From Candidatus Micrarchaeota archaeon (lineage in GTDB: Archaea; Micrarchaeota; Micrarchaeia; Micrarchaeales; Micrarchaeaceae), in assembly GCA_021848125.1 (NCBI GenBank), contig JAJZMY010000019.1, forward strand, positions 13,054-77,053: DNA of 64,000 nt, given 5' to 3'. Position numbers and translations under genes: made by a program. Shown piece after piece: positions 46,979 through 47,293 of this stretch. The notes beneath the pieces were generated by a model that was not told where the DNA came from, made no database searches, and saw nothing but the letters and a program-made list of their open reading frames with translations. Position 1 is the first letter of the stretch. Every line of letters begins with the position of its first letter.

Positions 46979-47293
46979 TTATTTTTTGTATTTTCTTATC
47001 AGCTCAACAACACGATACACTGATTTTCTAACATCTGCTGTTGTTGATGCGCCAGTACAAATGATTTTTCCATTTTTGAACAATAAAATAGCAGACTTAG
47101 GATTATAAAGTTTTAATATTGCCCCTGGAAACTGCTCGGGTTCATAATCAATATCATGGGAAACTGATGCCAAGCCATAAAGGTCCAATTCCTTTTCCAA
47201 ATTGGCACTTGCAACTATATTTACAATTTTATAAGTTGGTTTTAATATTTTTGTATTTTTCTTTATTTCTTTTTTTACCATTTTATCAGCCAA
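46979..47293 (-). CDS. tbp: TATA-box binding protein homolog with a single TBP repeat (104 aa)
   Basis: [20 protein letters not shown]....[40 protein letters not shown] matches one TBP repeat almost motif for motif. Canonical TBP has two such repeats in about 180 aa. Confidence 0.7.
   Translation of the reverse strand: [104 protein letters not shown]

Follow-up and report, generated by a model that had tools for sequence, protein, structure and literature searches.

Results and Discussion

A half-size TBP gene and its surroundings

The stretch of Micrarchaeota DNA analysed here (the window, 64 kb in length with 27.8% G+C) carries on its minus strand a gene for a half-size TATA-binding protein (half-TBP), that is, a protein built on one TBP repeat. 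The gene lies between a topoisomerase VI subunit gene and a set of plus-strand genes, and the features of this part of the window are the following:

43510..45288, + strand: SdhA-like flavoprotein (Pfam FAD_binding_2/Succ_DH_flav_C on the identical locus L005)
45314..46009, + strand: SdhB-like Fe-S subunit (Pfam Fer2_3/Fer4_8 on L005)
46009..46740, + strand: membrane protein of 243 aa (ORF list)
46768..46938, + strand: hydrophobic ORF of 56 aa (ORF list)
46979..47293, - strand: half-size TBP gene, 104 aa, with a TTG start at 47293 (ORF list)
46988..47233, - strand: single complete TBP repeat, residues 21-102 (Pfam PF00352 match)
47243..47293, - strand: Lys-rich N-terminal tail, residues 1-17, variable in sequence and kept across the family (family alignment)
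47294..47403, - strand: AT-rich spacer of 110 nt between top6B and half-TBP (sequence read directly)
47404..48981, - strand: topoisomerase VI subunit B (top6B), 525 aa, upstream of half-TBP (Pfam HATPase_c and Topo-VIb_trans on L005)

The flanks are those described in an earlier note on this DNA, with the AT-rich spacer and top6B upstream and a small plus-strand ORF and sdh-like genes downstream. The 56-aa ORF and then the succinate dehydrogenase-like genes (43510..46938, +) converge on half-TBP from downstream, and these neighbours are without TBP similarity by tblastn. The 64-kb window contains no tRNA genes and no matches to Rfam families.

The half-TBP frame closes with a TAA stop codon at 46979-46981, and an in-frame ATG at 47281 yields the 100-aa product reported by public gene callers; the window's protein is an exact match (100% identical) to P0001 / MCL4383131.1. 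Its repeat was matched by PF00352 with an E value of 1.3e-25 and 89.5 bits (cut-off 22.9) over profile positions 2-85 of 85, which places it in the TBP repeat family, and no other Pfam family matched the protein at E values up to 1. Every significant match among PDB sequences was a TBP, and repeats 1 and 2 of 1mp9, 2z8u and 1ais were matched about equally (E down to 5e-35). The repeat comprises strand S1, the YEPEQF stirrup, the intercalating phenylalanines F55 and F72, and helix H2. Both phenylalanines and the segment D49-Y-E-P-E-Q-F-P-G-A were invariant in 22 family members and aligned to their equivalents in 1mp9, 2z8u and 1ais. The roles of the kinking phenylalanines and of the stirrup are known from established TBP structures, and the stirrup contacts TFB/TFIIB in solved complexes.

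Half-TBP has, then, the Phe pair and the acidic YEPEQF stirrup of a canonical TBP, but not the two repeats and the approximately 180 aa, as it shows one repeat and a clean stop at 104 aa. The best of the NCBIfam whole-protein TBP models (NF001592) gave 86.4 bits against a cut-off of 270, about a third, as is to be expected of a protein that is half a TBP. The reading of this ORF as a single TBP repeat encoded as a stand-alone 104-aa protein, proposed beforehand in the earlier note, is one on which PF00352 and the PDB alignments agree; the TBP motif quoted there is present, with the kinking phenylalanines and the stirrup intact, and a TBP fold of the RNase HIII or glycosylase type, named there as the finding that would speak against it, is ruled out by the same PF00352 and PDB matches. 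We also rejected an RNase HIII or DNA glycosylase N-terminal domain on the grounds that no further domain is present and that the top 44 fold matches of a tandem model of the protein (described below) were all TBPs.

The promoter of half-TBP is presumably located in the 110-nt spacer (47294..47403), where no distinct promoter box was readable in this 28% G+C genome and no GGTG Shine-Dalgarno like that of relatives was found. An A-rich stretch is conserved upstream of the half-TBP genes of many relatives; ATATA(A/T)ATACCTTT comes next and, after it, a second palindromic box, TTTAAATA or TTTATAAA, with GGTG near -8. As read from the sequence, such an arrangement would suit a promoter with a BRE and a TATA box. 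A promoter profile computed over crude gene calls in the loci displayed a broad AT rise only and no usable motif.

Conservation of half-TBP across Micrarchaeota

A scan of GTDB with one genome per species yielded 375 relatives of half-TBP, and we examined the best 80 loci, which extend down to about 56% identity. They belong to 80 distinct Micrarchaeota genomes with G+C contents of 27-56%, and all 80 carry one TBP repeat in an ORF of 94-135 aa, within a stop-to-stop frame of at most 168 codons. Among them are the complete A_DKE chromosome (NZ_CP060530.1), from a cultured Ca. Micrarchaeum sp., and a locus on a 1.05-Mb contig. The family includes the half-TBP of Ca. Micrarchaeum acidiphilum ARMAN-2 (EET90338.1 / UniRef100_C7DGJ1), a Mancarchaeum MAG carries the gene as well (L018), and databases hold 36 clusters of single-repeat proteins of 100-125 aa, with 65-77% identity among the matches listed. 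The family spans a large Micrarchaeota clade, in which the members with names are Micrarchaeum (ARMAN-1, ARMAN-2 and A_DKE), Mancarchaeum and Micrarchaeaceae MAGs.

The alignment of 22 family members disclosed 41 invariant columns. On either side of the repeat, the tails had median lengths of 17 (N-terminal) and 10 (C-terminal) residues across the family, with net charges of +3 and +4, respectively. For the core of 83 codons, dN/dS was 0.0-0.05 in close pairs, with a median of 0.13 over 436 pairs. These values show that half-TBP is under strong purifying selection.

Short-read assemblies can collapse repeats, and the NCBI pipeline names the product of this gene 'hypothetical protein', so it might be argued that half-TBP is an artefact or a pseudogene, namely a frameshifted, truncated or collapsed two-repeat TBP. 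We regard the probability of this as negligible. The identical 100-aa protein was found on at least 23 independently assembled contigs (ENA, Logan and NCBI), and its neighbours were identical at all four places shown, which stand for eight of those contigs. The ORFs of the 80 species are clean and have no repeat remnant up- or downstream in any frame, the gene is present both in the complete A_DKE chromosome and in the 1.05-Mb contig, and its dN/dS is far below 1. When half-TBP and two full-length TBPs were used as tblastn queries over the whole 64 kb, only the gene itself was matched, which upholds the earlier claim that the flanks hold no second repeat; the same queries revealed no second repeat within 10 kb at the 80 related loci. 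Apparent upstream TBP extensions in L035, L066 and L059 proved to be low-identity alignment run-on through stop codons and not remnants. Misassembly or a frameshift, which had been put forward as the way in which the observation could fail, is excluded by the assemblies, at least 23 in number, together with the short frames of the 80 species. The half-size TBP is thus confirmed as a real and conserved feature.

Origin of half-TBP

The nearest two-repeat proteins were TBPs of other Micrarchaeota, with 45-58% identity and the source labels Micrarchaeia, Anstonellales and 'Diapherotrites'. The motifs EQFPGAI and LLFKNGK were common to half-TBP and to both repeats of these nearest full-length TBPs, while FPGL and F.SGK stand at the corresponding positions in TBPs from the remaining archaea. 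When half-TBPs were compared with the N and C repeats of full-length relatives by neighbour joining (bootstrapping a subset of 45 of the 90 full-length relatives), they formed one clade in 100/100 bootstraps; the sister of this clade was unstable, being mixed in 70 bootstraps, N in 23 and C in 7. An N-versus-C profile log-odds gave -11.5 for half-TBPs, as compared with +61 for N repeats and -60 for C repeats, and the profile was intermediate, without a single switch point, so a simple unequal crossover between the repeats is no more than a possibility. This intermediate score fits one sequence serving both positions.

Gene order was the decisive line of evidence. L21e was divergently adjacent to half-TBP at 72 of the 80 loci, 56 of which also had RpoF and DUF655, and in the five sister lineages checked it was the full-length TBP gene that was divergent from L21e-RpoF-DUF655 (5/5), with KsgA next in four of the five. 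The family is therefore found at the same locus as canonical TBP (72/80 versus 5/5), and since this is the TBP locus of the sister lineages, half-TBP is a positional ortholog of canonical TBP that has been secondarily halved. The window's copy, whose neighbour is top6B and not L21e, is one of the few exceptions, together with L009; the top6B-half-TBP arrangement is specific to these two lineages, and L21e, RpoF and DUF655 are absent from the 64 kb. In this case, orthology is drawn from the 73-77% identity to family members.

On the basis of these relationships, half-TBP is a secondary reduction, by which an ancestor-like architecture came about again. The family arose from a Micrarchaeota two-repeat TBP gene that lost one of its repeats while at the ancestral locus, where it is divergent from L21e-RpoF-DUF655, and in the sub-lineage of the window the half-TBP gene later moved beside top6B.

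The earlier note had observed that a single-repeat TBP resembles the ancestral state proposed for the TBP domain. Half-TBP does have the architecture that Brindefalk et al. 2013 (PMC3597702) consider for a hypothetical, monopartite ancestor, and its equal distance from N and C repeats could be taken to mean that it is an ancestral relic, that is, a direct survivor of the single-repeat TBP that preceded the duplication. We find this very hard to sustain and consider it highly improbable. Half-TBP bears a lineage signature, in that its characteristic residues recur in both repeats of the TBPs of Micrarchaeota and Diapherotrites and differ from the FPGL and F.SGK found elsewhere. The nearest full-length TBPs, even at no more than 58% identity, are far closer to it than other archaeal TBPs, its members make up one clade (100/100), and it occupies the L21e locus at which sister lineages keep a two-repeat gene. 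A survivor would, moreover, call for many independent duplications; to our knowledge, TBP is duplicated in all other archaea and in eukaryotes. Accordingly, the claim of an ancestral state did not hold in the sense of survival, and secondary reduction within Micrarchaeota is the reading that we adopt below.

Structural model and proposed mechanism

We modelled a head-to-tail fusion of two half-TBP copies with 56 natural TBPs as the alignment and obtained a pLDDT of 90.1 and a pTM of 0.82. Compared with solved TBPs, this tandem model had target-normalised TM-scores of 0.79-0.92 (stand-alone TBP chains) and rmsd values mostly of 1.6-3.5 A over about 186 columns, and no protein other than TBP was present among its top 44 fold matches. 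The joined tails appeared as a low-pLDDT linker, so in the tandem model the two tails, the N-terminal one and the short basic C-terminal one, can together act as an inter-repeat linker. Modelled without an alignment, the same fusion had a pLDDT of 35. Since the alignment was made of covalent two-repeat TBPs, the tandem model is a statement of compatibility and not of dimerisation.

Canonical archaeal TBP is quasi-symmetric, and its direction is already set by TFB-BRE. In the mechanism that we propose, the S1 strands and H2 helices of two identical half-TBP subunits would form the interface from which the ten-stranded saddle is rebuilt. The resulting TBP would be exactly two-fold symmetric: four phenylalanines would kink the DNA, and the two stirrups that bind TFB would be identical. 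It could take either orientation on the TATA box, and recognition of the BRE by TFB on one side would decide which way transcription runs. The basic tails at the two ends of the protein may also contribute non-specific affinity for DNA and thereby offset the cost of dimerisation. A review on archaeal transcription states that the orientation of the archaeal PIC is set by TFB-BRE contacts (PMC7289017, citing Bell et al. 1999). Because these contacts orient the initiation complex, a perfectly symmetric TBP should be mechanistically tolerable. We infer from the above that half-TBP homodimerises and binds DNA and TFB; a symmetric saddle made by a homodimer, whose polarity would come from TFB and BRE, had been proposed in the earlier note and is kept here as the best mechanistic reading.

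Is half-TBP the working TBP of the cell?

We believe that half-TBP probably acts as a homodimeric general TBP, and it may be the main or only TBP of the cell. In 72 of the 80 genomes examined, the ancestral TBP locus is occupied by half-TBP, and each of the 80 genomes appears once among the best 80 of the 375 loci. Among the best 120 matches per search there were about 270 clusters of full-length TBPs of the Micrarchaeota type, and none of them lay on a contig with the length of a half-TBP contig; the half-TBP contigs in this comparison included the A_DKE chromosome, which the database contains at its length of 989,838 bp. In the published annotation of A_DKE, proteins 1-643 of 1044 include no entry with PF00352, K03120, arCOG01764 or 'TATA', and the half-TBP of this strain (QRF74309.1) is about protein 828 of 1044, beyond the 62% covered. 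The A_DKE half-TBP, a protein of 12.2 kDa, was also sought by molecular mass in one S-layer proteome table, with no protein-level detection there.

Two other readings in which a further TBP gene exists have to be weighed against this one. It is conceivable that a normal two-repeat TBP is encoded elsewhere and that half-TBP is an accessory paralog with an auxiliary or regulatory role, for example competing for TATA boxes or for TFB. Such a paralog would resemble Halobacterium TbpA, which is single-domain, dispensable and found beside full-length TBPs. In favour of it, the complete genome of Mia14 (Ca. Mancarchaeum acidiphilum) is listed with two arCOG01764 proteins (Supplementary Data 4, Golyshina et al. 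2017) and, given the half-TBP of the Mancarchaeum MAG (L018), a second gene of the TBP family may exist in one relative or more. In addition, every single-domain TBP known so far occurs beside full-length TBPs (Brindefalk et al. 2013, PMC3597702). A second copy is possible in the organism of the window too, since its half-TBP is off the L21e locus and that locus is outside the window. We nevertheless consider the accessory role unlikely, as the ancestral TBP locus holds half-TBP and not a full-length gene in the great majority of the genomes, no listed full-length cluster falls on a contig with the length of a half-TBP contig, and a TBP annotation is absent from the first 62% of the A_DKE proteome table. 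Half-TBP is also conserved more strongly than would be expected of a dispensable paralog. The comparison with TbpA itself argues in this direction. The halobacterial TbpA homologues are very similar to the full-length TBPs of the same species, with which they coexist, and TbpA is not essential (PMC3597702). Half-TBP is like them a stand-alone single repeat that clusters with true TBP repeats but, unlike them, forms an old and separate clade of at least 80 species, under strong purifying selection and at the ancestral TBP locus, with no more than 58% identity to any full-length TBP.

The other reading is that of a split TBP, in which the second repeat would come from a divergent half-gene and the saddle would be a heterodimer, in a manner reminiscent of the split genes of Nanoarchaeum. 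The two TBP-family proteins of Mia14 would fit it, and the survey covered the best 80 of the 375 relatives, so that copies below about 56% identity would be outside it. However, there was one locus per genome among those best 80, and the two sub-types visible in the family were located at the same L21e locus, which makes them orthologs in different genomes and not partners. An exhaustive search of 1.84 billion representatives revealed no second conserved short TBP family. A candidate for a second half, P0350, was rejected, as it was a singleton on a 746-bp contig, with full-length proteins as its nearest relatives, and represents a truncation of an ordinary TBP; another short protein, P0381, was a lone case on one 55.7-kb contig. 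Moreover, half-TBP is intermediate between N and C repeats and not specialised as one of them. A split TBP is thus improbable, and a homodimer of half-TBP is the reading that we retain.

Comparison with known TBP systems

Half-TBP belongs to the same repeat family as canonical archaeal TBP (1MP9 of Sulfolobus acidocaldarius; 1AIS/1PCZ of Pyrococcus woesei) and has the same Phe pair and YEPEQF. It is 45-58% identical to each repeat of the full-length TBPs of other Micrarchaeota orders (P0003 and P0014 among them), it is divergent from L21e-RpoF-DUF655 in most family members, as is canonical Micrarchaeota TBP, and a tandem of two copies models as a saddle. Unlike canonical TBP, it has one repeat per polypeptide, so that its saddle must be non-covalent and exactly symmetric, and it is without separate N and C (TFB-binding) lobes; it also differs in its basic N- and C-terminal tails and in failing the NCBIfam whole-protein cut-offs. 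As it passes the test of the repeat family and fails that of two-repeat architecture, half-TBP is best filed as a variant of TBP.

The monopartite TBP-domain proteins of Thermococcales, of about 91-97 aa (e.g. P. furiosus NP_578195), are also independent small archaeal proteins with a single TBP-fold domain. These are highly diverged, fall into separate sequence clusters, are always found beside a normal TBP and have no known function (PMC3597702), and their similarity to TBPs is weak only (Table 3, PMC3597702). In contrast, half-TBP is an unmistakable TBP repeat with all the TBP-specific motifs. With the hypothetical homodimeric ancestor of TBP it shares the single repeat and the need to dimerise into a symmetric DNA-binding saddle; it differs in being nested within two-repeat TBPs, which makes it a natural analogue of that ancestor and not a never-duplicated descendant.

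TBP is a textbook example of an internally duplicated protein, and the presence of two repeats has been taken as a universal feature of archaeal and eukaryotic TBPs. Its proposed beginning as a homodimer of one repeat is based on its structural symmetry and on marginal single-domain paralogs. A full-text literature search, with incomplete coverage, found no paper on a single-repeat TBP or a half-size architecture in Micrarchaeota or ARMAN. We lean slightly towards the view that a clade of at least 80 species may have dropped the bipartite TBP altogether, with all initiation run by a homodimeric, two-fold symmetric TBP. If this were true, no other cellular lineage would be known in which the general TATA-binding factor departs from the two-repeat form, and the clade, which includes the cultured A_DKE, would offer an accessible natural stand-in for the ancestor that preceded the duplication. 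Should half-TBP prove to be the working TBP, it would mean that a cell can live on a symmetric TBP. Several questions would then become testable, such as the share that TBP itself has in promoter polarity as opposed to TFB/BRE, the simultaneous loading of two TFBs and divergent transcription in compact genomes, and the purpose of the covalent link between the repeats. The A_DKE/host co-culture and simple recombinant proteins would open these questions, which are of interest to specialists in archaeal transcription and protein evolution.

Members of the family have been in public databases since the ARMAN-2 genome, under the labels 'TATA-box binding family protein', 'TATA-box factor' and 'hypothetical protein'. 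The last of these, as applied by NCBI, results from a score that falls short of the family threshold, and because of it Micrarchaeota MAGs can appear to be without a TBP.

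Results

Comparison of the approximately 75 nt that precede each half-TBP start in loci L010-L088 (for example, L072, L079, L085, L070 and L083) disclosed a promoter-like element that is conserved in many species 5' of these genes for single-repeat TBPs, with the following parts:

~45-60 nt before the half-TBP start codon: an A-rich stretch and then ATATA(A/T)ATACCTTT, in many species
near -25: a second box, palindromic, TTTAAATA or TTTATAAA
near -8: GGTG

The region bearing this element is the divergent spacer common to half-TBP and the ribosomal protein gene L21e and, because it is shared by both genes, each of the two boxes may serve one of them. 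The window spacer (47294..47403) does not carry GGTG. It is bordered there by the following gene:

47404..48981, - strand: topoisomerase VI subunit B (top6B), at L005, the locus identical to that of the window

In archaea, the genes of the topoisomerase VI subunits are usually adjacent. At L005, top6B was unaccompanied: no called gene had a Pfam match to subunit A in the ~8 kb upstream of top6B or the ~10 kb past the TBP gene. Three ORFs located 5' of top6B (262, 43 and 840 aa) were without Pfam match.

Outside the main half-TBP family, single-repeat TBPs were found sporadically. Protein P0350, encoded on a 746-bp contig (locus L092), is a singleton most closely related to ordinary full-length TBPs, with which it shares 74-77% identity. 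P0381, encoded at positions 204-662 of a contig of 55.7 kb (locus L093), presents a lysine-rich N-terminal extension of 65 residues followed by one TBP repeat. TBP halving may have occurred more than once. The search of representatives also yielded database proteins with three or four TBP repeats, which could be either genuine repeat expansions or artefacts of assembly or gene models:

P0224, 272 aa: three archaeal-type repeats, repeats 1 and 2 nearly identical
P0244, 376 aa: eukaryotic TBP core doubled head-to-tail
P0345, 329 aa: three or four repeats
P0269, 702 aa: three or four repeats

A mosaic was found among the half-TBPs themselves. Residues 1-78 of P0115 (106 aa) are identical to the half-TBP of ARMAN-2, and its last 28 residues match the other sub-type (AKTEADIRKAIEQVIKVVRKY...). 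The protein results either from recombination or from an assembly that joined sequences of two Micrarchaeota present together.

In GenBank, MAGs carrying the Micrarchaeota half-TBPs P0001 (that of the window), P0072 and P0108 (locus tags M1168_, M1331_ and M1559_) bear the name 'Candidatus Marsarchaeota archaeon', and the titles of two GTDB records with the gene (loci L021 and L087) read 'Candidatus Acidoferrum sp.' and 'Candidatus Saccharimonadales bacterium'; all these bins look mislabelled or contaminated. Moreover, the NCBI pipeline names half-TBP 'hypothetical protein' and, therefore, genomes carrying it can give the impression that TBP is absent. In Supplementary Data 4 of Golyshina et al. 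2017 (PMC5498576), the TBP family arCOG01764 was counted twice in Ca. Mancarchaeum acidiphilum Mia14, once in 13 other DPANN genomes and also twice in the fragmented assembly of Haloredivivus G17. What the second Mia14 protein is has a direct bearing on the question of an additional TBP in genomes that encode half-TBP.
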